A DNA stretch of 64,000 nucleotides. Origin: an uncultured Acidobacteriota bacterium (GTDB lineage Bacteria > Acidobacteriota > Terriglobia > Acidiferrales > UBA7541). Below are positions 9,934 through 37,942 of this stretch, piece by piece (position 1 is the stretch's first letter; each line of letters opens with the position of its first letter). The stretch covers positions 132,048 to 196,047 of the forward strand of contig CAWFEC010000002.1 of the NCBI GenBank assembly GCA_963814735.1, read 5' to 3'. The translations under genes were made by a program, and so were the position numbers. Below the pieces are notes generated by a model, which searched no databases, was not told the DNA's origin, and was given only the letters and a program-made list of their open reading frames with translations.

Positions 9934-11373
9934 GTGCTAAGCGAGCGAACGATTCGGTGGCCATCGCGTTCGATCTTATTTGCCCTTATTGTAATTGCCG
10001 GGTGGCTTGCTTGCGGCGCCGATTTTGCACAATCTCCGGACAAGCGCGCGCTTCCTGCGCCAGTGCAGCTCACAGCGGAACAAGATCACCAGAGGATGAT
10101 GAATCTGCTGCACATCACTTCGCTCCGCCGGGCCCGGGACGCGAATCCCGCCTCGCCGTACGCGGCGAATTCCGACGAGTCCAAGGCCAACCCGTACCCG
10201 AAACTGCCGGACCCGCTGAGACTGAACAACGGAAAGAAGGTGACGTCGGCGAAGATGTGGTGGACGAAACGGCGTCCCGAGATTGTCGAGGACTTCGATC
10301 GAGAAGTGTATGGGCGCGTGCCGAAGGACACTCCGAAAGTGAATTGGGAAGTGGCGGACACAACGCGCGAAACGATCGGTGGCGTGCCGGTGGTTACGAA
10401 GAAGCTTGTAGGGCACGTAGATAACTCGTCGTATCCGCTGATCACTGTGGACATTCAGGCGACGCTCACGACGCCCGCGAATGCCGCGGGGCCCGTGCCG
10501 GTGATGATCGATTTCGGATTCGATCAGGCGTTCATGGCCCGGCTGCGCGCGCAAATGGAGGCTCGCGGACAAAAGTTTCCAGCTCCTCCACCCGGTCCTA
10601 CATGGCAGGAGCAAGTGCTGGCCAAGGGTTGGGGCTACGCGATTCTCGTTCCGACGAGCTATCAGGCGGACAACGGCGCCGGCTTGACTCAGGGAATCAT
10701 CGGCCTGTGCAACAAGGGGCAGCCTCGCAAGCCGGATGATTGGGGAGCTTTGCGAGCGTGGGCATGGGGTGCGAGCCGCCTGCTCGATTACTTTGAGACC
10801 GACCCGAGCGTAGACGCCAAGCGAGTCGGCATCGAGGGGCTGTCGCGCTACGGGAAGGCGACGCTCGTGACGATGGCTTACGACCAGCGGTTCGCGATTG
10901 CGCTGGTTGGCTCGTCGGGGGCGGGCGGAGCCAAACTCTTCCGGCGCAATTTCGGCGAGGCCGTGGAAAACCTGGCAGCCACCGGTGAATACCACTGGAT
11001 GGCCGGAAATTTCCTGAAGTTTGCTGGGCCGCTGAACGCGAGCGATCTTCCGGTGGATGCGCACGAACTCATCGCGATGGCCGCGCCGCGGCCCGTGTTT
11101 ATCAGCTGCGGCTCACCTCTTGTCGAGGGCACGTGGGTGGACGACAAGGGTCAATTCATGGCCGAAGTGGCAGCCGGGCCGGTATACGAACTTCTCGGAA
11201 AACGAGGATTGGGAGTGACGGAGATGCCGCCGATCGGCACTGCCTTGATCGACGGCGACCTGGCGTTTCGCCAGCATGAAGGTCCGCACACGGATTTGCC
11301 GAATTGGCCGGCGTTCTTGGAATTTGCATCGCGCTACATGAGCGAGCCGCACTCGGCGCGTGCGGCCAATTAG
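9934..11373 (+). CDS. secreted glucuronoyl esterase-like alpha/beta hydrolase (CE15 family-like)
   Basis: The G-L-S-R-Y-G-K motif matches the CE15 G-C-S-R-x-G-K nucleophile signature. Signal-peptide-like N-terminus from GTG 9934 (VLSERTIRWPSRSILFALIVIAGWLACG), preceded by AAGGAG at 9923-9928. Confidence 0.7.
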   Translation: MLSERTIRWPSRSILFALIVIAGWLACGADFAQSPDKRALPAPVQLTAEQDHQRMMNLLHITSLRRARDANPASPYAANSDESKANPYPKLPDPLRLNNGKKVTSAKMWWTKRRPEIVEDFDREVYGRVPKDTPKVNWEVADTTRETIGGVPVVTKKLVGHVDNSSYPLITVDIQATLTTPANAAGPVPVMIDFGFDQAFMARLRAQMEARGQKFPAPPPGPTWQEQVLAKGWGYAILVPTSYQADNGAGLTQGIIGLCNKGQPRKPDDWGALRAWAWGASRLLDYFETDPSVDAKRVGIEGLSRYGKATLVTMAYDQRFAIALVGSSGAGGAKLFRRNFGEAVENLAATGEYHWMAGNFLKFAGPLNASDLPVDAHELIAMAAPRPVFISCGSPLVEGTWVDDKGQFMAEVAAGPVYELLGKRGLGVTEMPPIGTALIDGDLAFRQHEGPHTDLPNWPAFLEFASRYMSEPHSARAAN

Positions 11374-14153: not shown

Positions 14154-15923
14154 CTATGGCAACGCGAACACGTAGATCGCGTTGCTCCCGGTCGTCGGCG
14201 TATGCATGTCGGGTATCTCGTTGGCCAGCTCCGGAACTTTGAGATTGTAGCCCGTCATCACGCAGACGTATTCCTTGCCGTTCACCCCATACGTGATCGT
14301 GCTCACCGAGACGTTGCCGCCGAGAATCGATTCCCAAAGTTTCTTGCCGGTTCGCGCATCGAAGGCGCTGAATCGTCGGCTCATGTCCCCGTGAAACACG
14401 AGACCCCCCGCTGTGGTGACCACGGAAGCCGTGCTCGGGGCGCGGCCCTCGTCGAAACGCACCATGTCGCCGGTCGAGAGATTAATCTTCGCCAGGCCGG
14501 CGAGTTTGTTGGGATCGGACCCGGGCCGCGGAATCACTTTCCACGAGCCGCGTATGCCGGGAGCGGCCGTGGTGAGATCGCGGCAATTATCGACGTACGG
14601 CACGTAGAGAGAATTCGTGAGCGGGTCATACGACGTGGGCCAATAGCTGCGCGTGTTCCAGAAGCAAATGATGTGGTGCTCGCCCGGCTTCTTGGTGACG
14701 ATGTCCCAGTTCAACGTGGTTTGCCCTGTCTTCACGTTGACGCTCGCGAGGTTGAAATTCGGGTCGTCGTAAGGAAAGGGCATGGCCCAGAGAAATTTGC
14801 CGTTGTTCCGATCCAGGGCAAAAACCGAGCCGCCTTCGGAAACCATCACCGCCATATCGTGCTTCGATCCGCGCGGAACATCGGGATTGATCCACTTCAC
14901 GGCTTTCGGATCGGGATCGAAGGGTTCGTTCACCAACGTGCGCTCGTGCGTGTGATCCGTGTCCCAGTCGTCGCCCGGCAGATGCTGGTAATACCAGATC
15001 AGCCGTCCCGTCTTCGGATCGAGCGCCAGCGTGCAATTGCTGTAGAGGTCTGCGGGCGAAGTCCGCGCGGTGCCATCAGGATTGCCGCCGTGCCGCAGAA
15101 TGCGCTGATCGGGCATGGGATTCGCCACGCCCCAGTAGATCACGTTGCGCGCAGGGTCGAAGCTCCCCGGCAATCCCCATGTGGATGCCGTATCCTGCGA
15201 GTTGTCACCGCCTCCCCATGAGGAATATCCGGGATCATCGGGTCCAGCGACGTTGTAAAAGCGCCAAACTTTTTCGCCCGTTTCGGCGTTGTCCGCCTCG
15301 ATGAAGCAAGTATCGCGGCCGTGGCCGCAGGTGCCCCCGGATACGACGTTGCCGTCGATCACCAGTGGGCCCGACGTATTGGCCGTCTGCGTCTTGAAGG
15401 TCTCCCAGCGGACTTTTCCGGTGCGCGCGTCGAGCGCGACCACGTAGCCATCGGGCGCCGTGAAATAAACCATGTCTTCATAAATCGCGAGACACTTGGA
15501 TCTTTCTGTGGAGCCGATCTGCGGATTCTTGTACTCGCGCTTGTATTCCCAGATGAGGTCGCCGGTGGTGGCATCGAGCGCGTCGACCATGCCCCCCGGC
15601 GCGATCACGTACATCACGCCGTCATGCACGATCGGAATCGTCTCGGTGACGCCATCCGGAAGGCTGCGCACCCACGCCATGCGAAGCTGGCCCACGTTTT
15701 TCGTGTTGATCTGCGAAAGCGGGCTGTAGCGCCACGCATCGTACGTGCGGCTATACATCAGCCAGTCGTCCGGGCTGGGATGCAGCAGCATTTCGTTTGT
15801 GACGGGTTTGTAGTTCTCGACTTGCCTGTACTCGACCGGCTTATTGTCCAAGGTCTGCCCAAACGCGGGCACGACGATCCCCGCGAAGCATAGGCACACA
15901 GCAAGAGTCCGGATCCGAACCAT
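14154..15923 (-). CDS. PQQ-dependent dehydrogenase (quinoprotein alcohol/methanol dehydrogenase family), periplasmic
   Basis: About 589 aa from ATG 15923 (MVRIRTLAVCLCFAGIVVPAFG signal peptide). N-terminal LLHPSPDDWLMYSRTYDAWRYSPLSQI and repeated W-containing propeller motifs are characteristic of the family. GGGGGAAC RBS. Confidence 0.85.
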   Translation of the reverse strand: MVRIRTLAVCLCFAGIVVPAFGQTLDNKPVEYRQVENYKPVTNEMLLHPSPDDWLMYSRTYDAWRYSPLSQINTKNVGQLRMAWVRSLPDGVTETIPIVHDGVMYVIAPGGMVDALDATTGDLIWEYKREYKNPQIGSTERSKCLAIYEDMVYFTAPDGYVVALDARTGKVRWETFKTQTANTSGPLVIDGNVVSGGTCGHGRDTCFIEADNAETGEKVWRFYNVAGPDDPGYSSWGGGDNSQDTASTWGLPGSFDPARNVIYWGVANPMPDQRILRHGGNPDGTARTSPADLYSNCTLALDPKTGRLIWYYQHLPGDDWDTDHTHERTLVNEPFDPDPKAVKWINPDVPRGSKHDMAVMVSEGGSVFALDRNNGKFLWAMPFPYDDPNFNLASVNVKTGQTTLNWDIVTKKPGEHHIICFWNTRSYWPTSYDPLTNSLYVPYVDNCRDLTTAAPGIRGSWKVIPRPGSDPNKLAGLAKINLSTGDMVRFDEGRAPSTASVVTTAGGLVFHGDMSRRFSAFDARTGKKLWESILGGNVSVSTITYGVNGKEYVCVMTGYNLKVPELANEIPDMHTPTTGSNAIYVFALP

Positions 15924-16107
15924 ACGATGTTCCCCCGAGCCCAGTGGCCGAAATAAGCGCGCGCACAAGAACCGGGGGCATCCTACAGCAGGTCGCGGTA
16001 CGCCTCAATAGCCAGATCGCCGTGATCTAAAAATATTCCCCGTGGTTGCTTGCGGGGACGGGAAGTAATCTAATTCTCAGTGTAGAAGGATTTCAGGAGG
16101 AGCGATC

Positions 16108-25807: not shown

Positions 25808-26089
25808 CTATCGGCCGAGCCTGCGCTTGATCTCGCGCTCGAATTGCGGAAAATAGCGCCCGATCAGCGACAAGTCGAATCGGGCTAAAATCAATTCCTT
25901 CGCCTCGTTTTCCAGCAGAAATTCAAATGAGCGCCGCACAAGTTCCTGCGGTTCAGCCTTGCCTTTCGCGAGCCGTTCGTAATCCTCACCCTTCAGCGTC
26001 ACGCGGTGCGACGTCTCCGTCTTGCCTTCGATCACGCGCACGCGAAAATCGCCTTCGCCGATCTGCTCGACTTCAATCTTCGCGGCCAT
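25808..26089 (-). CDS. conserved hypothetical protein (93 aa)
   Basis: Clean ORF. The pattern ...HRVTLKGEDYERL...ELVRRSFEFLLENE....ILARFDLSLIGRYFPQFEREI resembles a small conserved family seen in Actinobacteria and other soil bacteria. Confidence 0.55.
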   Translation of the reverse strand: MAAKIEVEQIGEGDFRVRVIEGKTETSHRVTLKGEDYERLAKGKAEPQELVRRSFEFLLENEAKELILARFDLSLIGRYFPQFEREIKRRLGR

Positions 26090-26192
26090 TCTCCCAGCCT
26101 ACTTTTTTCGCCCGCCGAATTCCATAGCGCGGTTGCGGTCGCGCAGGCGTTTTGGTATAGATGCGGCGCACGCTTTTTCGAACGGGGGAACC

Positions 26193-27185
26193 ATGGCCAG
26201 AAAACTGTTCTTAGCAGGCGTGTTTGCCATTTTGATCTGCGGATTTGTCGCGCTTCGATCTGCCAAACCGACGCTGGCCGCCGCCGCGCCCGTTCCCGCC
26301 GCGGCGAGTGACTGCGATCGCGCATGCCTCAACGGTTTCGTCGACAAGTTTCTCGCCGCCCTTGTGGCGCACGACCCGTCGAAGCTCCCCCACACGCCCG
26401 ATCTGAGGTATTCCGAAAACAATGTGATGCTCCAGCCCGGCGACGGCCTCTGGGCCACCGCGGACGGAATCGGTTCCTACAAAATTTACATCGACGATCC
26501 CGAGGCCGGCGAAGTCGGCTACTACGGCATCGTGAGCGAAGACACGCATCCGAGCATCTTCGGCATGCGCATGAAAGTGGTGCACCAGAAAGTTTCGGAG
26601 ATCGAGGTCGTCGTCGCTCGCCGCGACCAGCCGAACAGCCCTTTCGGCAACCCGGATAACCTGAAGGAGAAGCCGGTCTTTTCCGAAGACATTCCCGCGG
26701 ACAAACGCCTTTCCCGCGCGAAGCTGATCTCCATCGCCGACTCCTACTTCTCCACGATCCAGCAGAACTCGGGAAAAATCTACGCGCCGTTCGCCAGCGA
26801 TTGCCAGCGTGTAGAAAACGGCATGATCACGGCCAACAATCCCGACGGCACCGGAGTCGCCAAGCAGGGTTGCGAGGAGCAATTGAACAAGGGCCTGCTG
26901 ATCTTCGTCACGCGCTGCCGCGATCGCCGCTTCGTGGTTGTCGACCAGCAGAAGGGCCTCGTGCTAGTCAACGGTTTCTTCGATCATGCCGGCGTGATCA
27001 CACACTACAAATTGACCGACGGAACGCCGCACACCGTCGCGCCGCCATTCGACCGGCCCTATTCGTTCAACATGTTCGAGCTATTCAAGGTCAATGAAGA
27101 CGGCAAAATCCGCCAGATCGAGGCCGTAATCCTGACGGTGCCGTACCACATGCCGACGCCCTGGCCTCCCACGCCGATGAAATAG
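26193..27185 (+). CDS. secreted protein of unknown function, tandem paralogue A
   Basis: ATG 26193 gives MARKLFLAGVFAILICGFVALRSA (signal peptide). Conserved CDRACLNGFVDKFLAALVAHDPSKLP and a C-terminal ...FKVNEDGKIRQIEAV (NTF2-like ending). The track start at 26022 is an over-extension. Confidence 0.6.
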   Translation: MARKLFLAGVFAILICGFVALRSAKPTLAAAAPVPAAASDCDRACLNGFVDKFLAALVAHDPSKLPHTPDLRYSENNVMLQPGDGLWATADGIGSYKIYIDDPEAGEVGYYGIVSEDTHPSIFGMRMKVVHQKVSEIEVVVARRDQPNSPFGNPDNLKEKPVFSEDIPADKRLSRAKLISIADSYFSTIQQNSGKIYAPFASDCQRVENGMITANNPDGTGVAKQGCEEQLNKGLLIFVTRCRDRRFVVVDQQKGLVLVNGFFDHAGVITHYKLTDGTPHTVAPPFDRPYSFNMFELFKVNEDGKIRQIEAVILTVPYHMPTPWPPTPMK

Positions 27186-27231: not shown

Positions 27232-28206
27232 ATGCGCACAGTAAGAATCAGTTTCGTCTGCGCGTTTATGCTTGTCATGATCGCCGCGCGGCCCGCCGTG
27301 GCTCAATCGTCGGCTGCGATCCCGCAGGATTACGATCCGAATTTCAATTACGATTGCGGCCGCGCCTGCCTCGACGGCTACGTCGATCAGTATCTCGCCG
27401 CGCTCGTCGCTCACGATCCCTCGCGCCTTCCTCTCGCGCGCCAGGTCAAGTTCACTGAGAACGGCCAGGAGCTCAAGCCTGGCGACGGTCTGTGGGGCAC
27501 GGCCACCGGCATCGGCAACTACAAAATCTACGCCGACGATCCGCAGGCGGGTGAAGTCATGTTCATGGGCACCATGCTCGAAAATGGCGCACCGATCATC
27601 TTCAATCTCCGCCTGAAGGTCGAGCTTCGCCGCATCACCGAAATCGAAACCCTTGTCGCGCGCAAGGAAGCCGGCAGCCTGGCTCGCCCCGAGAATCTCG
27701 TCACGCCCAATCCGCTTTTCGCCGAAACGGTCCCGGCCTCCGAGCGCCGCTCGCGCCAAAATATGATCGCCATCGCCAACAGCTATTTCAGCGCCATCGA
27801 AAAGGGCCACGCCTCCTACGTCCCCTTCGACAAGGACTGCAATCGCATCGAAAGCGGCGTGCAGACCACCAACAACAAGCAGCTCGCGACCGGTCCAGAT
27901 TCCGTTCTCGGCCTCGGCTGTGCGGATCAGCTTAAAACCCGCAACTTCCAGCCGGACACGCTGATTCGCGACCGCCGATTCGCGGTGATTGACGAAGAGC
28001 GTGGCCTCGTTTTCGTCCTCGGCTTCTTCGACCACGACGCCACGCTGCGATCCTACACGCTCGCCGATGGCCGCACGGTGAAGCAAACCCGCACCGCCCC
28101 TTGGACCTGGGAGATCGCCGAAATGTTCAAGATTCAGGATGGAAAGATCATGCGTGTCGAAGCCATCGTCAACACCTGCCCCTACGGGATGAAATCCGGC
28201 TGGTAA
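27232..28206 (+). CDS. secreted protein of unknown function, tandem paralogue B
   Basis: Signal peptide MRTVRISFVCAFMLVMIAARPAVA. Collinear with paralogue A (CGRACLDGYVDQYLAALVAHDPSRLP, PGDGLWGTATGIGNYKIY, DRRFAVIDEERGLV, FKIQDGKIMRVEAIV), and four Cys positions are conserved. Confidence 0.6.
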   Translation: MRTVRISFVCAFMLVMIAARPAVAQSSAAIPQDYDPNFNYDCGRACLDGYVDQYLAALVAHDPSRLPLARQVKFTENGQELKPGDGLWGTATGIGNYKIYADDPQAGEVMFMGTMLENGAPIIFNLRLKVELRRITEIETLVARKEAGSLARPENLVTPNPLFAETVPASERRSRQNMIAIANSYFSAIEKGHASYVPFDKDCNRIESGVQTTNNKQLATGPDSVLGLGCADQLKTRNFQPDTLIRDRRFAVIDEERGLVFVLGFFDHDATLRSYTLADGRTVKQTRTAPWTWEIAEMFKIQDGKIMRVEAIVNTCPYGMKSGW

Positions 28207-28243: not shown

Positions 28244-28259
28244 TGTGACGCCCATCACA
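28244..28259. promoter_or_regulatory. perfect CRP/FNR-family palindrome TGTGA-N6-TCACA upstream of actA
   Basis: TGTGACGCCCATCACA read directly from the sequence. Its centre is about 97 nt upstream of the proposed actA start. Confidence 0.4.
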
Positions 28260-28348: not shown

Positions 28349-28960
28349 TTGTTTCCGCACTCTTTCAATCGGTGGGTTCGCCTTGCAATTGTGAGTGGGG
28401 TGATCGTTCTTGGCTGCTCCGTTTTCGAATGGAGGCTCCACGCCCAGGAGCAATCCGCTTCTCCAGCGCCAAGCGACGAAGTCTTCACCACGGCACACCG
28501 CACCGTTCTCGCAGCGATTCGCGAATACCTCGGCATTCTTCCGACGCCGGTCCAGCCGATCGCCTTTACGCACAAAGTGCACCTCGCGAATGGTTTACAG
28601 TGTGTGAACTGCCACACGGGCGTGGATCAAGGTCCCGACGCGCGCATTCCCAGCGTCAATTTCTGCATGAACTGCCATCGGGTGATTGCCACGGACAAGC
28701 CCGAGATCAAAAAAGTCGCCGCGTATTTCGCGCGCGGCGAGGACATTCCCTGGCAGCGCGTCTATGGCTTCGAGCCTTCCGCGCACGTGAAGTTCAATCA
28801 CGCGCCGCATATTCGCGCGGGCATCGATTGCAAGGAATGCCACGGTGACATGACGACGCAAACGGTCGCCGAGCGCAAAGTCAACTTCACGATGGGCCTA
28901 TGCATTCAGTGTCACAAGCAGCACAAAGCATCGATTGATTGCGTCACATGTCACTACTAG
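28349..28960 (+). CDS. actA: Alternative Complex III-like pentahaem cytochrome c subunit
   Basis: Five CxxCH motifs (CVNCH, CMNCH, CKECH, CIQCH, CVTCH) and an N-terminal TM helix. It directly precedes the Mo-oxidoreductase/FeS/NrfD genes. TTG start with GAGGA 9 nt upstream; the start is uncertain. Confidence 0.8.
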   Translation: MFPHSFNRWVRLAIVSGVIVLGCSVFEWRLHAQEQSASPAPSDEVFTTAHRTVLAAIREYLGILPTPVQPIAFTHKVHLANGLQCVNCHTGVDQGPDARIPSVNFCMNCHRVIATDKPEIKKVAAYFARGEDIPWQRVYGFEPSAHVKFNHAPHIRAGIDCKECHGDMTTQTVAERKVNFTMGLCIQCHKQHKASIDCVTCHY

Positions 28961-29055: not shown

Positions 29056-31302
29056 ATGGAACGTCGCGACTTCTTGAAAATTTCGGCGATCGGAACGGCC
29101 TCAGCGGCGCTCGAAGGCTGCGGTAATCCCGATCACCAGCTGATCCGGTTCATTCCGGAAGAGGACATGCTTCCCGGCATCGCCACCTGGAAGCCGAGCA
29201 TCTGCACGCAATGTCCCGCGGGTTGCGGCCTGCTCGTCCGCGTAATGCAGGGCGAAGCCGAAGTGATTCGCCACGGCCAGCTCGGCCTGATTAAGATGGG
29301 CCTCGCGAAAAAGCTCGAGGGCAACCCGAATCACCCGATCAATCAGGGAAAGCTCTGCCCCCGCGGCCAGACCGGCCTGCAGGTCACGTATCATCCCGAC
29401 CGCATCCACACCCCACTTCAGCGCACCGGACCCCGCGGCTCCGGCCAATTCAAGGAAATCGCCTGGGATGACGCGATCAAGCAGCTCATCGCGCAATTGA
29501 GCCCGCTGAAAGAAAGCAAGCAAGCGAGCGGGCTTGCCGTCCTCACGTCTCCACTTCGAGGACATCGAAAGAATATCGTTGAGGGCTTCGCTGCATCTTT
29601 CCAGCATTCCTCGGTCGGCGAGTTTGCGTTTTTCGATGATGCGGTTGTCCGGGCAGCCAATGCGGCGAGTTTCAATCAAGCAGCGCTCCCGACAGCAGAC
29701 CTGGCGCAATCGAACTACTTGATTTCGTTCGGCGCGGATTTTCTTGGGACCTGGAATTCGCCGGTGGCGCAGTCAATCGGCTATGGCGTGATGCGCCAGG
29801 GACGATCGGGCCAGCGCGGGAAGTTCGTGCACGTCGAGCCGCGCCTTTCGCAGACCGCGGCAAATGCCGACGAATGGATCCCCTGCAAGCCGGGAACCGA
29901 AGGCGTGTTCGCGCTGAGCCTCGCGCATGTGATTCTGCGCGAGAAGCTGCGTCCCGCCGTCTCCGTAGCCGCAATCGAGGGCTGGTCGGAGGGATTGCCG
30001 GATTACGCGCCAGAGAAAGTCGCGGACCAGATTGGCGTCCCGGCGGCCAAGCTTACGCGCATCGCGCATGAAGTGGCGGCGAACGCGCCCGCACTCGCGC
30101 TGGCGGGCGGTTCGGCGGCCGCGCAAACGAACGGGCGATTCACCGCGCTTGCCGTGAACGTCTTGAACACGCTGCTGGGCAGCGTAGGGAAACCGGGAGG
30201 GATTCTCTTTAGCGCCGCGGCAAAGCCCGAACCCGGGAAGGCTGCCGTTTCGCCGTTCGATGCTTTCCTTCGGCAAATCCAGTCGGCGTCAGACGCGACA
30301 AAGGCGCTCCTTCTATTCAACGCGAATCCGGCGTTCGCTACGCCGCAGAGTTCCGGCGTCCGCGAAGCTTTCGAAAAGATCCCTTTCATCGCAAGCTTCG
30401 GAAGTTTCATCGACGAAACGAGCATCCTCGCCGACCTGATTCTTCCCGATCATTCGCCGCTCGAATCGTGGCTGGATGACGCGCCACCCTCCGGCAGCAC
30501 GCGCATGGTCGCGAGCCTCGCGGCGCCCGCGATGAGCCCGTTGCACAACACGCGTGCGATGCCCGATGTGCTTCTCGATATCGCGCAGCAGCTCGGCGGC
30601 GATCTCGCCAAAGCGCTGCCGTGGAAGACCTACGACGAGGCCCTCAAGGCTGCATTCGAAGGATTCCGCCAGCAAAAAGGTTCGGTTACGGCTACCGATC
30701 CCGACGATTTCTGGCAAAAGGTTCAGGATCAAGGCGGCTGGTGGAGCGCGGAAGAAAGGCCGCTTCCCGTGAGTGCGGGCAAATTAGCAGGTGGCCCCGC
30801 GAAAAATGTTGCTCCGCAGTTCGACGGCGATCCGGCGCAATTTCCACTCCACCTGCTGCCGTACGCTTCGCAGATGTGGTACGACGGCTCGCTCGCCAAC
30901 CTCCCGTGGATGCAGGAAGCGCCCGACCCAATCTCGAGCGTGATGTGGGGCTCGTGGGTCGAGATCAACACGCAAACGGCGGCCAAACTCGGCATCGCGC
31001 AAGGAGATCTCCTCGAAGTGGCATCGCAGCACGGCACGCTCCAAGCTCCGGCATTCGTGACGCCCGGGATCGCGCCGGATTGCGTCGCCATGCCCGTTGG
31101 CCAGGGGCACACGAATTTCACGCGCTATGCAAAGGATCGTGGCGCGAATCCGATCTCGATTCTCGCGCCGCTCACCGACTCGGAGACAGGCTCGCTCGCG
31201 TGGGCCGCGACCCGCGTCAAGATTTCGCGTATCGGCAAGGGCAACATGGTTCTGTTCGGTGGCAGCCTCAGCGAAACGCCGCCCGATACGCACCACCGAT
31301 AG
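29056..31302 (+). CDS. actB: ACIII-like molybdopterin-oxidoreductase-family subunit (ActB1), Tat signal
   Basis: MERRDFLKISAIGTASAALEGCG twin-arginine signal with a lipobox-like LEGC. N-terminal CTQCPAGCGLLV FeS motif. 748 aa of MopB-family sequence. Confidence 0.85.
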   Translation: MERRDFLKISAIGTASAALEGCGNPDHQLIRFIPEEDMLPGIATWKPSICTQCPAGCGLLVRVMQGEAEVIRHGQLGLIKMGLAKKLEGNPNHPINQGKLCPRGQTGLQVTYHPDRIHTPLQRTGPRGSGQFKEIAWDDAIKQLIAQLSPLKESKQASGLAVLTSPLRGHRKNIVEGFAASFQHSSVGEFAFFDDAVVRAANAASFNQAALPTADLAQSNYLISFGADFLGTWNSPVAQSIGYGVMRQGRSGQRGKFVHVEPRLSQTAANADEWIPCKPGTEGVFALSLAHVILREKLRPAVSVAAIEGWSEGLPDYAPEKVADQIGVPAAKLTRIAHEVAANAPALALAGGSAAAQTNGRFTALAVNVLNTLLGSVGKPGGILFSAAAKPEPGKAAVSPFDAFLRQIQSASDATKALLLFNANPAFATPQSSGVREAFEKIPFIASFGSFIDETSILADLILPDHSPLESWLDDAPPSGSTRMVASLAAPAMSPLHNTRAMPDVLLDIAQQLGGDLAKALPWKTYDEALKAAFEGFRQQKGSVTATDPDDFWQKVQDQGGWWSAEERPLPVSAGKLAGGPAKNVAPQFDGDPAQFPLHLLPYASQMWYDGSLANLPWMQEAPDPISSVMWGSWVEINTQTAAKLGIAQGDLLEVASQHGTLQAPAFVTPGIAPDCVAMPVGQGHTNFTRYAKDRGANPISILAPLTDSETGSLAWAATRVKISRIGKGNMVLFGGSLSETPPDTHHR

Positions 31303-31315: not shown

Positions 31316-32023
31316 ATGTCTCATCAATGGGGCATGGTGATCGATCTCGACCGCTGCACGGGCTGCGAGGCCTGCGTCGTCGCTTGCCACGCGGAAAATA
31401 ATATCTCGACGGTCGGCGAAGATCAGGCCGCCATCGGGCGTGCCAAGCACTGGATTCGCGTCGAGCGCTACTACGAAGGCGAGTTCCCGGACGTGAAGGC
31501 GAAATTCATGCCCGTCCTGTGCCAGCAGTGCGATGCCGCTCCGTGCGAGCCAGTCTGCCCCACGTATGCCAGTTATCACACGCAGGAGGGCCTGAACGGC
31601 CAGGTCTACAACCGCTGCATCGGGACGCGCTATTGCGCGAACGCCTGCCCGTACACGGTCCGCTTCTTCAATTTCTACAATCCGGTGTGGGACAAGCCGC
31701 TGCAGCTGCAGCTCAATCCGGACGTTTCCATCCGCTCGGTCGGCGTGATGGAAAAATGCACGTTCTGCATCCAGCGCATCAAGGCGGGCGAAATCCAGGC
31801 CGAAGCCGAGAAGCGCGAGGTAAGGGACGGCGAAATTCAGCCCGCGTGCGTGCAATCGTGCCCCACGCGAGCCATGGTTTTCGGAGATTTGAACGATCCC
31901 CATAGCGAGGTTTCGCGGATGGCGCGCTCGAATCGCGCCACCAAGCTTCTCGCCGAATTGGGGACATTGCCGAAGGTAACGTACCTTCAACGGGACTCAG
32001 CGAATGCCAGCGAGAACGCCTGA
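31316..32023 (+). CDS. actB: ACIII-like 4Fe-4S ferredoxin-type subunit (ActB2)
   Basis: MSHQWGMVIDLDRCTGCEACVVACHAEN, CQQCDAAPCEPVCP, CIGTRYCANACP and CTFCIQR cluster motifs. ATG 31316; the track start at 31097 is an over-extension. Confidence 0.85.
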   Translation: MSHQWGMVIDLDRCTGCEACVVACHAENNISTVGEDQAAIGRAKHWIRVERYYEGEFPDVKAKFMPVLCQQCDAAPCEPVCPTYASYHTQEGLNGQVYNRCIGTRYCANACPYTVRFFNFYNPVWDKPLQLQLNPDVSIRSVGVMEKCTFCIQRIKAGEIQAEAEKREVRDGEIQPACVQSCPTRAMVFGDLNDPHSEVSRMARSNRATKLLAELGTLPKVTYLQRDSANASENA

Positions 32024-33362
32024 ACAGATCAACGAAGACTTGATGCGCCCGCTGTCGGGCGTTTCGGCACGCTATCTGGTGATCCTCGCTTTCTTCGCGG
32101 CGATCGTGCTGGCCGGCTTCTTCGCGTACGGTTGGCAGGTGAATCATGGGATCGGAGCCACGGGCCTGCGCCGCCCGGTATTTTGGGGCTTCTACATCAC
32201 CAATTTCGTTTTCTGGATCGGCTTGAGCCATGCCGGGACGCTGATCTCTGCCATTCTACGCCTCGCCAACGCCACGTGGCGCCGTCCGGTCACTCGCTGC
32301 GCGGAAGTCATCACGGTCTTCGCGCTCTCGATCGGCGCGATGTTCCCGATCGTCCACCTTGGCCGGCCATGGCTATTCTTCTGGCTCGTGCCGTATCCGA
32401 GCGAGCGCGGCATTTGGCCGAACATCCGCTCGCCTTTGCTCTGGGACTTCTTCGCCATCAGCACCTACCTGCTCGGAAGCGGGACGTTCCTTCTTCTGCC
32501 GATTCTGCCGGACCTCGCGTTGGTCCGCGACCGCTCGACAGGCTTGCGCAAGAAGATCTACACGGTGCTCGCGATTGGATGGCGCGGCACGCCGCGACAG
32601 TGGCATCGTCTTGAAAAAGCCATGTCGATCATGGCCATCGCCGTGATCCCGGTAGCCGTGTCGGTGCACAGCATCGTCTCCTGGGACTTTGCCATGGCGC
32701 CCGTGCCCATGTGGCACTCGACGATCTTCGCGCCTTACTTCGTTGCCGGCGCCATTTTCAGCGGCATCGCCGCGCTCATCATTGCCATGGCGTTGCTGCG
32801 CAAGTTCTTGCACCTCGAGGAATATTTGCTCCGCATGCACTTCGAGAACCTGGGAAAGCTTCTGCTGGTGATGAGCCTCCTCTGGGTCTACTTCGTGTTC
32901 TCCGAGCGCCTCACCAACTGGTACGGCAACGCGCCCTCGGAAATGGCCGTTTTCTGGCTCACTCAGACGGGCCGTTATTCGCCCCTTTTCTGGACGATGG
33001 TCGCCTGCAATTTCATCATCCCGTTCCCGTTCCTGGCCATCAAGAAGCTCCGCACGATCACCGGCTGCGTGATCGCTTCAACCACCGTCGTGATTGGCAT
33101 GTGGCTCGAACGTTTCCTGATCATCGTGCCGTCGCTCTCGCACAAGTATCTCCCGTATTCCTGGGCCACGAACTTCTACAAGCCCTCGTGGGTCGAAATC
33201 ACCATCACTGCGGCGACGTTCGCGGCGATGGTGGTGCTCTACATGCTGTTCTCGAAGTTCATCCCGATCATTTCGGTTTGGGAACTCAAGTGGGGCCAGC
33301 ACACAGAGGAGGTTCGCGATCCTGTGCTCTCGCGAGCGGATGAAGAGGAGGCCACCGCCTAG
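32004..33362 (+). CDS. actC: ACIII-like NrfD/PsrC-family quinol-interacting membrane subunit
   Basis: 452 aa, about 10 TM helices. FWGFYITNFVFWIGLSHAGTLISAILRL is typical of NrfD-like proteins. Overlaps the actB2 end by 20 nt. Confidence 0.85.
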   Translation: MPARTPEQINEDLMRPLSGVSARYLVILAFFAAIVLAGFFAYGWQVNHGIGATGLRRPVFWGFYITNFVFWIGLSHAGTLISAILRLANATWRRPVTRCAEVITVFALSIGAMFPIVHLGRPWLFFWLVPYPSERGIWPNIRSPLLWDFFAISTYLLGSGTFLLLPILPDLALVRDRSTGLRKKIYTVLAIGWRGTPRQWHRLEKAMSIMAIAVIPVAVSVHSIVSWDFAMAPVPMWHSTIFAPYFVAGAIFSGIAALIIAMALLRKFLHLEEYLLRMHFENLGKLLLVMSLLWVYFVFSERLTNWYGNAPSEMAVFWLTQTGRYSPLFWTMVACNFIIPFPFLAIKKLRTITGCVIASTTVVIGMWLERFLIIVPSLSHKYLPYSWATNFYKPSWVEITITAATFAAMVVLYMLFSKFIPIISVWELKWGQHTEEVRDPVLSRADEEEATA

Positions 33363-33893
33363 ATGTCTCAGGTAAACAGCATCTACGGTCTCTTTCCCGG
33401 CCCGCACTCGGCGGAGCGGGGCATGAACGCTCTGCGCGATGCGGGCGTCCCCGCCGACAAGATTGTAGTGATGGCGTCGGAACCTTTCGAGGAGTATTCC
33501 TTCGCGCAGGGCGATCGATCCACCAAAATGGGGTGGATCGCGGTCGGCGGAGGCATCTGCGGCGGTTTCGCCGGCTTCTCGCTGGCGTATTTCGTGCAGA
33601 CCGCCTATCCGCTGGTCACGGGAGGCATGCCGATCGTGGCGCCCTGGCCCACCGGCATCGTTACCTATGAACTCACGATGATGGCGGCGGTTCTGACGAC
33701 CGTAATCGCGCTCCTCATCGGCTCGCGGATCCCCGACTGGAGCGACAAGCTCTACGATTCCGAAATTTCCTATGGCAAAGTCTTGATCGGCGTCGTCGAT
33801 CCATCCGACGAATCTCGTGCCAGCCTCGAAGAGCGCTTGCGTCGCGCCGGCGCCGAAAAGATCAAGGCCACCGGCCGCTTCGCCTCCCACTGA
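33363..33893 (+). CDS. actD: ACIII-like membrane subunit ActD (DUF3341)
   Basis: The start abuts the actC stop. IYGLFPGPHSAERGMNALRDAGVPADKIVVMASEP followed by two TM helices matches ActD. Confidence 0.75.
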   Translation: MSQVNSIYGLFPGPHSAERGMNALRDAGVPADKIVVMASEPFEEYSFAQGDRSTKMGWIAVGGGICGGFAGFSLAYFVQTAYPLVTGGMPIVAPWPTGIVTYELTMMAAVLTTVIALLIGSRIPDWSDKLYDSEISYGKVLIGVVDPSDESRASLEERLRRAGAEKIKATGRFASH

Positions 33894-33945: not shown

Positions 33946-33983
33946 TGTGACACTTCCCACATTTTTACGTGACGCACGTCACA
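33946..33983. promoter_or_regulatory. two adjacent CRP/FNR-type palindromes upstream of the cytochrome-porin gene
   Basis: TGTGACACTTCCCACA (33946-33961, one mismatch to TGTGA-N6-TCACA) and CGTGACGCACGTCACA (33968-33983, one mismatch). The centre of the second is about 92 nt upstream of ATG 34067. Confidence 0.35.
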
Positions 33984-34066: not shown

Positions 34067-35440
34067 ATGCGATCAAGAATTGGTATTCCCCTTTGGATGT
34101 GTGGCGTTTTGATCGCCGCAATCCTGGGCGGGGCAGGTGAAGCGTCGGCCGTGCCGAGTTACGCCCGGCAAACCGGATTGCCTTGCAGTTCGTGCCACAC
34201 GACCATTCCGGAGCTGACGCCGTTCGGCAGATCCTTCAAGCTGAACGGGTACACGATGAACAGCTTGAAGCAGATCTCGGAGCAGGGAGGCGGAAGCAAG
34301 TCCGGTTTGAATCTGAGTTCGTACCTGCCGCTTTCCGCGTTCGTTCAGTTCTCGAACACGGTTGTGCAGAAGCCCCAGCCCAATGCGCAGAACGGGAACT
34401 ACGAGTTTCCGCAATCGGCCAGCATTTTCCTAGCGGGCGCTTTTTCAAAACACGTTGGCGGATTCGTGCAGGTCACCTACGACGCCCAGGGTGATCACTT
34501 CAGTTGGGACAATACGGACGTCCGCTATGCGAACACCGGCTCAATCGGCGGGAAGAGTGTTGTCTATGGCTTTACGCTCGACAACAACCCCGGCGTCGAG
34601 GATTTGTGGAACAGCACGCCGGCCTGGGGTTTCCCGTGGGTCTCGACCGATGTTGCGCCTTCACCTTCGGCGGCTACAATCGTTGACGGCACGCTCGCTC
34701 AGGATGTGGCCGGCGTCGGTGCGTATACCATGCTGGACGACCACCTCTACCTGGACTTCACCGTCTATCGCTCCGAGCATATCGGCGGGAGCCAGCCGAA
34801 TCCTGGTGTGGATCCCACTGGCGCACCCTTCTCCTACAACATACACGGACTCGCGCCCTATTGGCGGGCAGCCTGGCAGCAAACAGCCGGGAACAATTAC
34901 TTCATGATTGGCACCTACGGCATGCACATCGCCTCGTCGCCGGGAGCCGTCGCCATCACCAGTCTGCAGGACTTCTACACGGACGCGGCGGTCGACGCAC
35001 AATACGAGCGCGTCTTGCCTTCGTTCCACAACGACATCATCACCATCCACAGCACCTACATCCACGAGAGTTCCGATTTGTACGCCACGTATGACGCCGA
35101 GGGCGCTTCTCAGGTGCATCACAATCTCCAAACCTTCAAGATCGATGGCGTCTACCACTTCGGAAACAAATACTCAGCCACGATCGCCGGGTTTGACACC
35201 TGGGGAACCGCCGATCCGTTGCTGTTCCCGCAAGCGGACGTCACCGGGAGCGCCAATGGAGACCCCAAGAGCAACGGCTACATCGCCGGCTTCTCCTACT
35301 GGCCGGTGCAGAACCTTCAGCTCGGCTTGCAGTACACCGGCTACCTGCATTTCAATGGTGCGAAGACGAATTACGATGGCGCCGATCGAAATGCCAACGG
35401 GAACAATTCCTTGTACATGGTCGTCTGGATCGTGTTCTGA
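34067..35440 (+). CDS. fused monohaem cytochrome c / outer-membrane beta-barrel protein (Cyc2-like architecture)
   Basis: Signal peptide ...GAGEASA/VPSY. A single CSSCH sits about 10 residues into the mature protein. About 400 aa follow with alternating-hydrophobic strand patterns (YLDFTVYRS, YFMIGTYGMHIAS, FKIDGVYHFGNKYSATIAGF, IAGFSYWPVQNLQLGLQYTGY) and a terminal ...YMVVWIVF (C-terminal Phe, OMP signature). Confidence 0.6.
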   Translation: MRSRIGIPLWMCGVLIAAILGGAGEASAVPSYARQTGLPCSSCHTTIPELTPFGRSFKLNGYTMNSLKQISEQGGGSKSGLNLSSYLPLSAFVQFSNTVVQKPQPNAQNGNYEFPQSASIFLAGAFSKHVGGFVQVTYDAQGDHFSWDNTDVRYANTGSIGGKSVVYGFTLDNNPGVEDLWNSTPAWGFPWVSTDVAPSPSAATIVDGTLAQDVAGVGAYTMLDDHLYLDFTVYRSEHIGGSQPNPGVDPTGAPFSYNIHGLAPYWRAAWQQTAGNNYFMIGTYGMHIASSPGAVAITSLQDFYTDAAVDAQYERVLPSFHNDIITIHSTYIHESSDLYATYDAEGASQVHHNLQTFKIDGVYHFGNKYSATIAGFDTWGTADPLLFPQADVTGSANGDPKSNGYIAGFSYWPVQNLQLGLQYTGYLHFNGAKTNYDGADRNANGNNSLYMVVWIVF

Positions 35441-35499: not shown

Positions 35500-36237
35500 A
35501 TGAAAATGAATGACTCACGCTTCATCGCAACCGCGATCTTCGGTGTGGTTCTGTTGGGGTTGTCCGTCGGCGTCTCGGGACGGCTTTCGGCCGGCGCACA
35601 GGCCTCAGCCGGCGGTACGATCGAAGGCACGATCCACTTTGAAGGAACGCCGCTCAGACGAGCCAAGCTCGACATGGGCGCGGATCCCTACTGTGCCGGC
35701 GCGCATTCGGAACCGGTGCTCGCACAGGACGGCGCCGTCAACAGCAACGGCACGCTTCCCAACGCGTTCATCTACATCAAGGACGTTCCGGGAACGTTTC
35801 CGCCGCCCTCGCAAGCCGTCGTTCTCGACCAGAAGGGGTGCATGTACGAACCGCACGTGCTGGGCCTCATGGCCAATCAGCCGTTGCGGATCGTATCGAG
35901 TGACCCCACGACTCACAACATCCATCCACTATGCAAGATCAACAAAGAATGGAATCAATCGCAGCCGCCCGGCGCTCCTCCGCTGATCCATAAGTTCGCT
36001 CGCCCCGAAATCATGATTCCGGTGCACTGCAACCAGCACCCCTGGATGAGCGCCTACATCGGGGTAACCAGCAATCCGTTCTACGCCGTCACCGGCACCG
36101 AGGGGACGTTCACGATCAAGGGTGTTCCTCCGGGCGAATATACGTTGACGACCTGGACAGCGACCTTTGGCACCCAGGAGCAAAAGGTGACAGTCAGCGC
36201 GGGTGAAACCGCCCACGCCAACTTCACCTTCAAATAG
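35500..36237 (+). CDS. secreted cupredoxin-like protein with C-terminal carboxypeptidase-regulatory-like beta-sandwich
   Basis: Signal/TM segment MKMNDSRFIATAIFGVVLLGLSV. SSDPTTHNIH plus HCNQHPWM gives a His...Cys-x2-His-x2-Met pattern like type-1 Cu ligands. The C-terminal GTFTIKGVPPGEYTLTTW resembles a CarboxypepD_reg fold. The ATG 35500 start is uncertain. Confidence 0.55.
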   Translation: MKMNDSRFIATAIFGVVLLGLSVGVSGRLSAGAQASAGGTIEGTIHFEGTPLRRAKLDMGADPYCAGAHSEPVLAQDGAVNSNGTLPNAFIYIKDVPGTFPPPSQAVVLDQKGCMYEPHVLGLMANQPLRIVSSDPTTHNIHPLCKINKEWNQSQPPGAPPLIHKFARPEIMIPVHCNQHPWMSAYIGVTSNPFYAVTGTEGTFTIKGVPPGEYTLTTWTATFGTQEQKVTVSAGETAHANFTFK

Positions 36238-36334: not shown

Positions 36335-37942
36335 CTAGGGCAACATCCACGTCACCCAATAGGCTTGCGCGTAGGCGAGCACGCCGACCAGCGTCGCGAA
36401 AACGATGCTGTGCCAGAAGGTCGACCGCAGCACTTTTCCTTCCTGCGCGATCAATCCTACCGTTGTAACTCCGACCGCAATGTTCTGCGGCGAAATCATC
36501 TTGCTCGTCACTGCGCCCGAGGAATTCGTCGCCGCCATCAGCACGGGGCTCAGATGAAGCTGATGCGCGGCTGCCACTTGCAGATTGCCGAAGAGCACGT
36601 TGCTCGCGGTGTCGCTTCCGCTCAGAAAGCACGCCACCCAGCCGAGGTAGCTGCTCAGAAACGGGAAGATATGCCCCGCGTGCGCCGCCGCTGCTCCGAG
36701 CGTGTACGCCATCCCCGAATAATTGTAAAGGTACGCCAAGCCGACGATCACGATCACGGTGAGCCCGGGAAGCCAAAGCTGGCGCAGTGTCATCCATCCA
36801 CATTTCGCGAAGACGCTCAGCCGCGCTCGAAAACACAGCGCGGTGAGCGCGGTGGCCGTCAGCGCTGCCGTCCCAGCCGCGAGTGGCTGGAACGTGTAGA
36901 GCGCTGAGTATGGCTGATTGTAGAGCGTGATCAGCACTCCTTTGTGCAGGTGAGGAATCGCGAACACGACCTGCCCGATCGGAGTCAGCTTCAGGTACGA
37001 CCACAGCACGACAACTCCCGCCAGGAGTATCCACGGGAGCCACGCTAGAAACGCGGCGCCGAACGAAAGCTTTTCGCCCCGTTGCTCTTGCGGCTCGTCC
37101 ACAACCGCGCCCGGTTTCCATATCTTGAGAAAACCTACGGTCGCCGCGATCGAGGCCGTCGCGGCGACGATATCCGGAGTGTACGGCCCCCAAAAATTCG
37201 AGACGAAAAACTGGGCCGCCGCGAAACTACCGCCCGCGACAAGCGCCGCGGGCCACGTCCGCTTCAGCCCTTTCCATCCAGCCACAACGCACGCCAGATA
37301 AAACGGAATGAGGAACGACATCAAGGGGAGCTGCCGCCCGACCATCGACGAAAGCTTTTGCAGATCGAGGCCCGTCACGCCCGCGAGCGCCACGATCGGA
37401 ATTCCCAGCGCACCGAACGCGACCGGCGCCGTATCCGCGATCAGCGAAACGACGATTGCACGCCGCGCGTCGAATCCGAGCCCAACCAAGAGAAACGCCG
37501 TCACCGCGACTGGCGCGCCGAACCCAGCCGCGCCCTCAAGGAGCGCACCGAAGCAGAACGCGACCACGATCGCCTGAATGCACGGATCGTTTGAAACGTG
37601 GCGTTCCATCCAGTGCCGCAACAGATCGAATTTTCCCGTCGCGACCGTGAGGTTATAGAGCCACAGCGCGCAAAAGACGATCCACATGATCGGCCAGGCC
37701 GCGTACACGCAGCCGAACACCGTGCTCCACGCGACCAGCACGAACGGCATATGCCATATGAAGATCGCGAGCGCGCCCGCCGCCGCGAGCCCGCATACCG
37801 ACGCGAGCAGGCTGCTCGTTCGCAGAATTCCCATCAGTGCGAGGACGATGGCGAGCGGCACTGCCGCCACGAGCGCGGACATGGCGAGCGAATGCACGGG
37901 CGCGAGCGGCTGCGGCCACATGGCGGCGAACGCAAGGATCAT
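36335..37942 (-). CDS. lctP: L-lactate/glycolate permease (LctP family)
   Basis: 535 aa, polytopic. The WLYNLTVATGKFDLL and FGALLEGAAGFGAPVAVTAFLLVGLGF motifs are typical of LctP. An alternative start is M8 (37921). Confidence 0.85.
   Translation of the reverse strand: MILAFAAMWPQPLAPVHSLAMSALVAAVPLAIVLALMGILRTSSLLASVCGLAAAGALAIFIWHMPFVLVAWSTVFGCVYAAWPIMWIVFCALWLYNLTVATGKFDLLRHWMERHVSNDPCIQAIVVAFCFGALLEGAAGFGAPVAVTAFLLVGLGFDARRAIVVSLIADTAPVAFGALGIPIVALAGVTGLDLQKLSSMVGRQLPLMSFLIPFYLACVVAGWKGLKRTWPAALVAGGSFAAAQFFVSNFWGPYTPDIVAATASIAATVGFLKIWKPGAVVDEPQEQRGEKLSFGAAFLAWLPWILLAGVVVLWSYLKLTPIGQVVFAIPHLHKGVLITLYNQPYSALYTFQPLAAGTAALTATALTALCFRARLSVFAKCGWMTLRQLWLPGLTVIVIVGLAYLYNYSGMAYTLGAAAAHAGHIFPFLSSYLGWVACFLSGSDTASNVLFGNLQVAAAHQLHLSPVLMAATNSSGAVTSKMISPQNIAVGVTTVGLIAQEGKVLRSTFWHSIVFATLVGVLAYAQAYWVTWMLP

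Follow-up and report, generated by a model that had tools for sequence, protein, structure and literature searches.

A Cyc2-like cytochrome-porin encoded beside a cupredoxin in Terriglobia: a probable electron conduit across the outer membrane

The stretch of DNA examined in this work, referred to as the window, comprises 64,000 nucleotides of contig CAWFEC010000002.1 from an uncultured member of the Acidobacteriota (class Terriglobia). At positions 34067 to 35440 of the forward strand it contains a gene for a protein of 457 amino acids, referred to here as the Cyc2-like protein, in which a monohaem c-type cytochrome is fused to a predicted beta-barrel porin. The open reading frame (ORF) is preceded by a Shine-Dalgarno sequence, GAGGAG, 8-14 nt 5' of the ATG, and the following features were assigned to it.

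34067..35440, + strand: gene for a probable Cyc2-family fusion of monohaem cytochrome c and 16-strand porin (ORF, 457 aa, ATG start)
34067..34150, + strand: Sec signal peptide, residues 1-28, with cleavage predicted after A-S-A (read from the sequence)
34148..34216, + strand: Cyc2 signature A28-V-P-S-Y-A-R-Q-T36, followed by GLP, C40-S-S-C-H44, TTI and P48-E-L50 (motif according to Keffer et al. 2021)
34331..35437, + strand: predicted beta-barrel porin domain, residues ~89-457, with an invariant terminal Phe (DSSP on an AlphaFold2 model, Foldseek, and full-length alignment with Caballeronia and Acidiphilium homologues)

The protein runs from MRSRIGIPLWMCGVLIAAILGGAGEASA, the predicted signal peptide, into VPSYARQTGLPCSSCHTTIPELTPFGR at the start of the mature form, and ends in YMVVWIVF. 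Inspection of the signal peptide by eye revealed a basic n-region, a hydrophobic core and the A-S-A site, and the same region aligns with the signal peptides of Zetaproteobacterial Cyc2 proteins in hhalign comparisons. The only CxxCH motif (CSSCH, C40-H44) lies 12 residues past the predicted cleavage point, the one other cysteine, C12, being located inside the signal peptide. Of 120 close full-length homologues 119 have this motif, as do 124 of 127 sequences that represent clusters formed at 50 % identity; it is invariant in an alignment of 29 sequences, as are the C-terminal F457 and many positions of the barrel. The haem motif and the aromatic terminus are retained far more often than chance would allow. 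An initial annotation of the window, prepared without database searches, had described an ORF with a signal peptide, a single CSSCH and an aromatic C-terminus, all of which were found as stated, and the conservation of the CxxCH in orthologues is upheld by the counts given above. The domain plan of Cyc2 that it proposed for the protein is likewise borne out by the signature motif, by homology with the Cyc2 of Mariprofundus and by a porin-like structural model.

Cyc2 proteins were defined by Keffer et al. (2021) as having a signal peptide, one CXXCH, an upstream AXPXFAR[Q/K][T/Y] motif, a downstream PXL and a 16-strand porin resembling OprO or OprP, the upstream motif being described by those authors as unique to Cyc2. 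Membership was judged here after Keffer et al. (2021) and McAllister et al. (2020), with a length criterion of at least 365 aa, which the 457 aa of the window protein exceed. Within the signature the window protein carries Tyr at the position occupied by Phe in most homologues, and residues S31, R34, Q35, T36, C40, C43, H44, E49 and L50 are invariant across 29 homologues. The gap of three residues between ARQT and the first haem-binding Cys is identical in the window protein and in the Cyc2 of M. ferrooxydans. The Pro position of the motif is variable in the acidobacterial family, a regular expression search finding P-x-[FYW] two residues before the ARQT core in 48 of 120 sequences, while PxL, which is found in 116 of 120 close homologues, lies 3 residues past His44 in the window protein as against a published spacing of 4. 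Since all of the testable sequence-level defining features are present, the protein is filed with the Cyc2 family, an assignment that is considered very likely to be correct.

Searches with the protein, both as a single sequence and as a profile, returned no Pfam, NCBIfam or PDB sequence match, and none of these libraries includes a curated model of the family. A bona fide Cyc2 query was rebuilt from the Cyc2PV-1 peptides published by Keffer et al. (Table S1), and this retrieved Mariprofundus ferrooxydans proteins, P0271 among them, that hold the Cyc2PV-1 peptides in exact or near-exact form. The comparison with Cyc2 by BLAST that the initial annotation had suggested yielded significant similarity, the BLASTP alignment of the window protein with P0271 having an E-value of 4e-13 over residues 26-135. 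Alignment by hhalign of 29 acidobacterial with 26 Zetaproteobacterial Cyc2 sequences gave a probability of 99.1 % (E 1.6e-18, 131 columns).

An AlphaFold2 model prepared from the 29-sequence alignment has 16 beta-strands between residues 89 and 456 according to DSSP, and Foldseek matched it to the 16-stranded porins OmpF, OmpC, OmpU and OprO (4rjw; E ~1e-8, probability 1.0). OprO is also the structural homologue reported for Cyc2PV-1 (Keffer et al. 2021). Mean column identity across the barrel is 64 %, with numerous invariant His, Trp, Asp and Asn residues, and the protein is presumably located in the outer membrane. Prediction of the barrel, also proposed at the outset, thus points to a porin-like fold of 16 strands, albeit in a model of low confidence (mean predicted local distance difference test score, pLDDT, 57.5; predicted template modelling score, pTM, 0.64). 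The quality of the model weighs against too close an equation with characterised Cyc2 proteins, as do two features of the sequence comparison, namely that similarity to Cluster 1 Cyc2 is limited to the N-terminal ~130-140 residues, ending after the first two strands, and that the barrel parts alone, compared with Zetaproteobacterial Cyc2 barrels, gave an hhalign probability of 0.9 %. Because the barrel comparison gave nothing, homology to Cluster 1 is demonstrable for the N-terminal third only. The absence of similarity between the barrels alone is consistent with the known behaviour of the Cyc2 porin domain, which is poorly conserved (Keffer et al. 2021).

Relatives of the Cyc2-like protein are numerous: among clusters formed at 90 % identity more than 5,400 gave a match to it, and its profile matches 4,579 representatives of 50 % identity clusters, 639 of them below 1e-30. 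They are encoded in at least 575 species-level genomes, mostly of Terriglobia; the nearest matches (98 %) are to metagenome-assembled genomes (MAGs) of 'Candidatus Acidiferrales', and of the best 80 species nearly all are Terriglobia known from metagenomes of peat, palsa and acid soil. The family abounds in peat, palsa, acid soils and mine drainage, and one carrier of the gene among the 80, Acidipila rosea DSM 103428 (locus L078), is in culture. Full-length proteobacterial relatives with 29-40 % identity and E-values down to 4e-86 were identified by tblastn of plasmids, namely in Caballeronia, Ralstonia, Paraburkholderia, Methylocystis, Polymorphobacter, Acidiphilium cryptum JF-5 and A. multivorum, and genes for c-type cytochromes or high-potential iron-sulfur proteins adjoin the plasmid-borne genes. 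As a separate observation, the matches in CP084173.1, deposited as Acidithiobacillus ferrooxidans, and in NC_009469.1 (pACRY03 of A. cryptum JF-5) have equal identity, E-value, bit score and query range; CP084173.1 may represent a shared plasmid or Acidiphilium contamination of an A. ferrooxidans culture.

The gene that begins 59 nt 3' of the Cyc2-like gene encodes a second redox protein.

35500..36237, + strand: periplasmic type-1 cupredoxin joined to a CarboxypepD_reg beta-sandwich, 245 aa (copper ligands, AlphaFold2 and Foldseek, PF13620)

Three start codons are candidates for this ORF (35440, 35458 and 35500), of which that at 35500 is the most likely. The protein has a signal peptide and a C-terminal match to CarboxypepD_reg (PF13620), and its copper ligands H139, C177, H180 and M183 are invariant in 40 homologues. 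The copper loop, C-N-x-H-P-W-M (C-x2-H-x2-M), is amicyanin-like and equally short. An AlphaFold2 model (pLDDT 85, pTM 0.79) has amicyanin, plastocyanin and pseudoazurin as its top Foldseek matches in the PDB, with target-normalised TM-scores of 0.6-0.72. Neither the window protein nor five long homologues gave a match to the cupredoxin Pfam families PF00127 or PF13473, even at E up to 5, although shorter homologues exceed the PF00127 cut-off (28 bits for L072, 33 bits for L048), and many homologues are labelled 'plastocyanin' by JGI. Given the invariant ligands, the structural matches and the passage of the shorter relatives over the PF00127 threshold, the downstream gene product is a type-1 cupredoxin; the cupredoxin that the initial annotation listed among the adjacent components is therefore real, and is encoded immediately downstream. 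Only the final two thirds of the CarboxypepD_reg profile are matched, at the C-terminus of the protein, and ahead of the cupredoxin part there is a strand at residues 39-47; from this layout the cupredoxin domain seems to be inserted into the CarboxypepD_reg sandwich as a nested domain. Two further cysteines, C65 and C114, are also invariant and may form a disulfide. At locus L004 two paralogous cupredoxin-CarboxypepD_reg genes occur on one contig (11498-12259 and 20294-21076), one of them 3' of the Cyc2-like gene and the other flanked by a Rieske/cytochrome b/multihaem cluster on one side and a COX2 gene on the other, which suggests that the family serves as a general periplasmic carrier in Acidobacteria.

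The genomic context of the Cyc2-like gene was then scored in the flanks of 80 species-level loci, whose ORFs were searched with the window proteins and with neighbours verified by Pfam, as were the resulting partner assignments. A cupredoxin gene lies immediately downstream in 43 of the 80 loci and somewhere in the flanks in 53, and genes for a Rieske protein and cytochrome b, the latter often fused to c-type domains, lie within 4.5 kb downstream in 34, with both arrangements combined (cupredoxin immediately downstream plus Rieske/cytochrome b) in 19. A small class-I cytochrome c is encoded immediately downstream in 12 loci and immediately upstream in 7, and a module resembling Qrc or alternative complex III (ACIII) is adjacent in 4, being upstream in two and downstream in two. 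At least one of these electron-transfer partners was found in 75/80 loci, and the suggestion in the initial annotation of an electron-exchange module is to that extent supported by conserved synteny with electron carriers and complex-III-type enzymes. The conserved unit is a Cyc2-like protein plus a soluble carrier, usually beside a complex-III-type enzyme, and the ACIII-like complex of the window is a lineage-specific variant of the last component. The ACIII-like module was rejected as an obligatory partner, being adjacent in only 4/80 other species; the nearest relatives of the window (L005 and L006) have it upstream, as in the window. Oxidase genes seldom adjoin the Cyc2-like gene. Locus L016, from a Terriglobia MAG, carries coxB, coxA, the Cyc2-like gene and a cupredoxin gene in that order on one strand (5030-10128), an arrangement like that of the rus operon. 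Eight loci (L048, L069, L038, L055, L057, L064, L068 and L084) have a long operon with genes in the order cupredoxin, GltD-like, Rieske, split cytochrome b, octahaem cytochrome, cytochrome c and, last, the Cyc2-like gene (569-9269 in L048, 333-9317 in L069), in which the GltD-like protein is an NAD(P)-binding FAD/FeS flavoprotein of ~650 aa and the octahaem cytochrome c has ~700 aa. Rieske/cytochrome b complexes with an NAD(P) oxidoreductase subunit resemble complexes suggested for anammox bacteria.

Upstream of the Cyc2-like gene in the window lies an operon of five genes.

28349..28960, + strand: pentahaem cytochrome c, QrcA/ActA-like (PF14522, PF14537; five CxxCH; NF041781 QrcA, 72 bits)
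29056..31302, + strand: subunit of the molybdopterin family exported by twin-arginine translocation (Tat), QrcB/ActB1-like (PF00384, PF04879, PF01568, TAT signal; NF041783 QrcB, 338 bits)
31316..32023, + strand: 4Fe-4S subunit, QrcC/ActB2/DsrO-like (Fer4 families; NF041782 QrcC, 247 bits; ATG at 31316)
32004..33362, + strand: quinone-interacting membrane subunit of the NrfD family, ActC/QrcD-like (PF03916, E 6e-29)
33363..33893, + strand: ActD subunit of alternative complex III (PF11821, E 1.2e-23, 84 bits against a cut-off of 25.7)

The Qrc scores from NCBIfam are all under the equivalog cut-offs (QrcA 72 against 180, QrcB 338 against 440 and QrcC 247 against 400 bits), and the operon departs from a full ActABCDEF set in that the B subunit is split between two genes and no second NrfD-like gene, ActE or ActF was found. 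Because the best NCBIfam matches are to Qrc, below cut-off, yet ActD is a hallmark of ACIII, and ActE, ActF and a fused ActB are missing, the operon is a Qrc/ACIII hybrid. An ACIII-like module next to the cytochrome-porin gene had been claimed in the initial annotation; the five-subunit operon is indeed present upstream, but it is a hybrid, and it adjoins the gene in few other species. In subunit types (pentahaem cytochrome, molybdopterin-like, 4Fe-4S, NrfD-type and ActD) the operon is akin to the ACIII and Qrc complexes of Chloroflexus and Desulfovibrio. Its split B subunit is Qrc-like and the presence of ActD is not, whereas the single NrfD-like subunit and the lack of ActE and ActF set it apart from ACIII. 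The electron acceptor of the Chloroflexus ACIII is a cupredoxin, auracyanin.

Two copies of a palindrome of Crp/Fnr type, each a match to GTGAYN4RTCAC, connect this operon with the Cyc2-like gene.

33969..33982: Crp/Fnr-type palindrome GTGACGCACGTCAC, 98 nt 5' of the Cyc2-like start
28244..28259: second copy, TGTGACGCCCATCACA, in the promoter region of the Qrc/ACIII-like operon

These are exactly the two sites that the 64-kb window contains, against an expectation of 0.19, and none of 100 shuffles reached two. The copy at 28244..28259 sits between two promoter-like hexamer pairs, the extended form of the box is TGTGA[CT]-N4-[AG]TCACA, and the two-box arrangement is repeated in L005 and L006. 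Among related loci the box lies 5' of the Cyc2-like gene or its operon in ~35/86, against roughly 5e-4 per 260-nt region expected by chance. In 8/80 loci a regulator of the Crp/Fnr family whose N-terminus has an FNR-like Cys motif is encoded within 2.5 kb of the gene, and regulator genes of this kind (cNMP_binding plus HTH_Crp_2) lie directly upstream of the Cyc2-like gene in L051 (6983-7705), L017, L031 and L066, the N-terminal C-x2-C-x8-C of their products being reminiscent of the iron-sulfur cluster site of FNR. No sign of an intrinsic terminator was seen in the intervals from actD to the Cyc2-like gene and on to the cupredoxin gene. Since the only two palindromes of the window precede these two units and the box recurs in relatives, the data argue for co-regulation of the Qrc/ACIII-like operon and the Cyc2-like gene, and the shared box supports the link between the gene and the ACIII-like module in the window. 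The palindrome looks like a conserved regulon signal, and control is probably exerted by oxygen or redox state.

Comparison with established systems helps to place the cassette. By description, it is likened to the Cyc2/rusticyanin system of A. ferrooxidans (rus operon cyc2-cyc1-cup-coxBACD-rus), in which a fused monohaem cytochrome-porin is paired with a type-1 cupredoxin and electrons pass from outer-membrane Cyc2 to the periplasmic cupredoxin and on to an oxidase, or uphill to bc1 (PMC8790237); the same three component types are present in the window. In a published similarity network A. ferrooxidans Cyc2 is linked to homologues from Burkholderiales and Acidiphilium, which are full-length relatives of the window protein too. 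However, the window cupredoxin differs from rusticyanin in its amicyanin-like C-x2-H-x2-M loop and its CarboxypepD_reg domain, its gene directly follows that for the cytochrome-porin instead of lying seven genes off, the window is devoid of cyc1 and cox genes, the position of bc1 is filled by a Qrc/ACIII-like complex, and the hosts are soil heterotrophs as opposed to obligate acidophilic lithotrophs. With Cyc2PV-1 of M. ferrooxydans (Cluster 1) the window protein shares the signal peptide, the signature with identical CxxCH spacing, PxL, the single haem, a 16-strand model, OprO-like structural matches and ~130 homologous N-terminal residues, but the barrel sequences are without detectable similarity and PxL is 3 instead of 4 residues past the haem motif. 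The C-terminal Phe is a further difference from Zetaproteobacterial Cyc2 proteins, most of which have a non-aromatic C-terminus, and whose partners are Cyc1-type cytochromes, bc1 and cbb3, with ACIII apparently dispensable. Cyt572 of Leptospirillum is, by description, also an outer-membrane monohaem cytochrome of the Cyc2 family, and lies beside a dense cluster of homologues from Acidobacteria and Nitrospira in the similarity network; it has an unusual haem and a very long branch (Keffer et al.), and its partner is cytochrome 579 and not a cupredoxin. The MtrCAB, MtoAB and PioAB systems likewise exchange electrons with iron across the outer membrane, but consist of separate proteins, with a 26-strand barrel round a decahaem cytochrome that allows solid minerals to be reached (Keffer et al. 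2021), whereas the window protein is a single polypeptide with one haem and a 16-strand barrel.

The likely role of the locus is that of a trans-outer-membrane electron conduit wired to the respiratory chain. The explanation that accounts best for the observations, and which is given about an even chance of being correct as a whole, is that the Cyc2-like protein and the cupredoxin form such a conduit, with soluble Fe2+ as the likeliest substrate and with a connection to the inner-membrane chain; that the protein lies in the outer membrane, that iron is the substrate and that the cupredoxin is the direct partner are the presumptive elements. According to this scheme, the Cyc2-like protein would be a 16-strand outer-membrane porin bearing one c-type haem on the N-terminal ~35 residues of the mature form. 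A small soluble redox species, most probably Fe2+, would enter the pore and exchange an electron with the haem, which would in turn exchange electrons with the periplasmic type-1 copper protein. In the lineage of the window, the cupredoxin would be linked to the inner-membrane chain by the co-regulated, quinone-interacting Qrc/ACIII-like complex, a function that in most relatives would fall to a Rieske/cytochrome b complex and sometimes to a haem-copper oxidase. Expression of the system would probably be set by an FNR-like regulator of the Crp/Fnr family acting through the TGTGA-N6-TCACA box.

The direction in which electrons pass through such a conduit is less readily assigned. Fe(II) oxidation is a plausible physiological direction, if one held with rather less than even confidence. 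The data incline towards inward flow, with Fe(II) oxidation providing supplementary energy or detoxification at low oxygen in acid soil, because all of the characterised members of the family, three having been studied biochemically, oxidise Fe(II) (Keffer et al.), and because a 16-strand pore with one haem reaches small soluble ions only; a partner protein of rusticyanin type and the cox-linked operon of L016 also favour it. Several considerations count against this direction. Genes of the window, including those for lactate permease, glycoside hydrolases and beta-oxidation, suggest a heterotroph, and the partners encoded by neighbouring genes are mostly quinol-oxidising complexes (bc-type and ACIII-like) and not oxidases. 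No Fe(II)-oxidising isolate of the Acidobacteriaceae is known to have been reported. Menaquinone is the quinone of Acidobacteria, and reverse flow of electrons from Fe(II) would be very steep with such a carrier. Cultivated Acidobacteriaceae are, furthermore, known for micro-aerobic Fe(III) reduction (PMC8790237). More generally, the function of Cyc2 homologues outside Cluster 1 was deemed uncertain by Keffer et al.

Flow in the opposite direction, from menaquinol through the Qrc/ACIII-like or Rieske/cytochrome b complex to cupredoxin or cytochrome c, and from there through the Cyc2-like haem to soluble Fe(III) or another high-potential extracellular acceptor, is the alternative that has to be taken most seriously, although it is regarded as rather unlikely. 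The neighbours are chiefly quinol:carrier oxidoreductases (Rieske/cytochrome b in 34/80 loci, Qrc/ACIII-like in 4/80 plus the window lineage), transfer from ACIII to a cupredoxin such as auracyanin is the canonical direction for that complex, and the Crp/Fnr box and FNR-like regulators fit induction under oxygen limitation. Micro-aerobic reduction of Fe(III) is documented for Acidobacterium capsulatum and for species of Acidicapsa, a reversal of the Cyc2/rusticyanin/bc1 route in A. ferrooxidans with Cyc2 as terminal ferric reductase has been proposed, and aerobic dissimilatory Fe(III) reduction is listed for species of Acidiphilium (all PMC8790237), a genus in which full-length homologues are found on plasmids of A. 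cryptum JF-5 and A. multivorum; 'Ca. Acidoferrales' was, moreover, named for a predicted potential for Fe(III) reduction (PMC7980381). It is doubtful, but conceivable, that the module is the ferric reductase responsible for micro-aerobic Fe(III) reduction in acidophilic heterotrophs. Stated more specifically, and with equal reserve, a terminal ferric reductase under FNR control might be fed by menaquinol via a bc-type or ACIII-like complex in heterotrophic acidophiles such as the Terriglobia of soil and peat, and perhaps in Acidiphilium. Set against outward flow, in addition to the Fe(II)-oxidising activity of the three characterised proteins, is that at a soil pH of 4-6 most Fe(III) is either insoluble or complexed by bulky organic ligands, forms that, on the argument of Keffer et al., should not enter a haem-plugged 16-strand pore. 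The rus operon-like position of the L016 gene behind coxBA, and the GltD-like NAD(P)-binding subunit in some of the Rieske/cytochrome b operons, which is more typical of lithotrophs, likewise speak against it.

A substrate other than iron, such as Mn(II), Cu(I), reduced humic or quinone shuttles, or reduced sulfur or nitrogen species, appears improbable. Keffer et al. allow additional functions for Cyc2, with Clusters 2 and 3 largely unverified, the family is present in many heterotrophs that do not oxidise iron (Ralstonia, Caballeronia, Methylocystis, Terriglobia), and the strong conservation of the barrel, which is unusual for a porin, hints at a specific binding site; but there is no positive pointer to any particular alternative substrate, the habitats in which the family abounds are rich in iron, and Fe(II) is the sole substrate demonstrated in the family. 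Least probable is a solute porin, for instance an anion or phosphate channel like OprO and OprP or a pore for iron uptake, in which the haem domain would be a redox-sensitive plug or sensor, for although the structural matches are diffusion porins, among them the phosphate/pyrophosphate porin OprO, the divergent position of the gene beside pstSCAB-phoU, from which a phosphate porin might be read, concerns the opposite strand in a single lineage (L001-L003) and was rejected on those grounds, the electron-transfer partners found in 75/80 loci are on the same strand as the gene, and an invariant covalent haem site with a dedicated cupredoxin is hard to fit to a passive channel.

Whether the arrangement is new was judged from the literature. 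No published description was found of the Cyc2-like/cupredoxin-CarboxypepD_reg cassette, of its linkage to Rieske/cytochrome b or ACIII-like complexes, or of the Crp/Fnr box. FeGenie surveys already flag cyc2 in MAGs of Acidobacteriota (PMC13594681), and 'Ca. Acidoferrales', the order in which the protein has its nearest database relatives, was named for predicted iron cycling, in a paper whose main text is without mention of Cyc2 (PMC7980381). The lineage, taken in the initial annotation to be uncharacterised in this respect, had thus already been connected with iron cycling and cyc2 on the basis of predictions. What the window adds is an uncharacterised protein of the Cyc2 family whose surroundings combine familiar component types in an arrangement that is in part new.

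Few groups of soil bacteria are as abundant as the Terriglobia. Should the cassette exchange electrons with iron, organisms regarded as plain heterotrophs would account for a large part of the capacity for iron cycling in acid soils and peat, and the direction of flow decides how metagenomic counts of 'cyc2' should be read. Were the protein to act as a ferric reductase, it would supply a mechanism for the micro-aerobic Fe(III) reduction of Acidobacteriaceae, and metagenomic matches to 'cyc2' could not be read as iron oxidation. The acidobacterial subfamily also makes the function of Cyc2 homologues outside the neutrophilic iron oxidisers testable, as it offers a cultured carrier in Acidipila rosea, a defined cupredoxin partner and a predicted Crp/Fnr signal, together with an FNR-like regulator, that suggests growth conditions to try.

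The remaining features of the window that were considered in connection with the module are as follows.

294-2003: NiFe hydrogenase large subunit (PF00374, E 1.6e-232)
4111-9202: hyp maturation genes, namely an AIR-synthase-like hypE, a gene for a HypB-type GTPase, and hypF
14154-15968, - strand: pyrroloquinoline quinone (PQQ)-dependent dehydrogenase
36335-37942, - strand: L-lactate permease

The initial annotation had placed the module next to a hydrogenase-bearing region, a link that was not sustained. The hydrogenase and hyp genes lie ~25-32 kb away, separated from the module by unrelated genes on both strands (an esterase, the PQQ dehydrogenase, a glycosyltransferase and an amylase), and the hydrogenase was rejected as a part of the module. 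The gene for its small subunit would fall outside the window, to the left of position 1. The ~50 window ORFs scanned included no genes for carbon fixation, and the PQQ dehydrogenase and L-lactate permease point to a heterotrophic host. Just 5' of the Qrc/ACIII-like operon lie two paralogous genes (26022-27185 and 27232-28206), neither of which had a match in the copy of Pfam used. The pair was rejected as a part of the module, being kept with it only in the closest relatives (L005 and L006); its homologues in L005 carry the precomputed label PF26061 (DUF8021).

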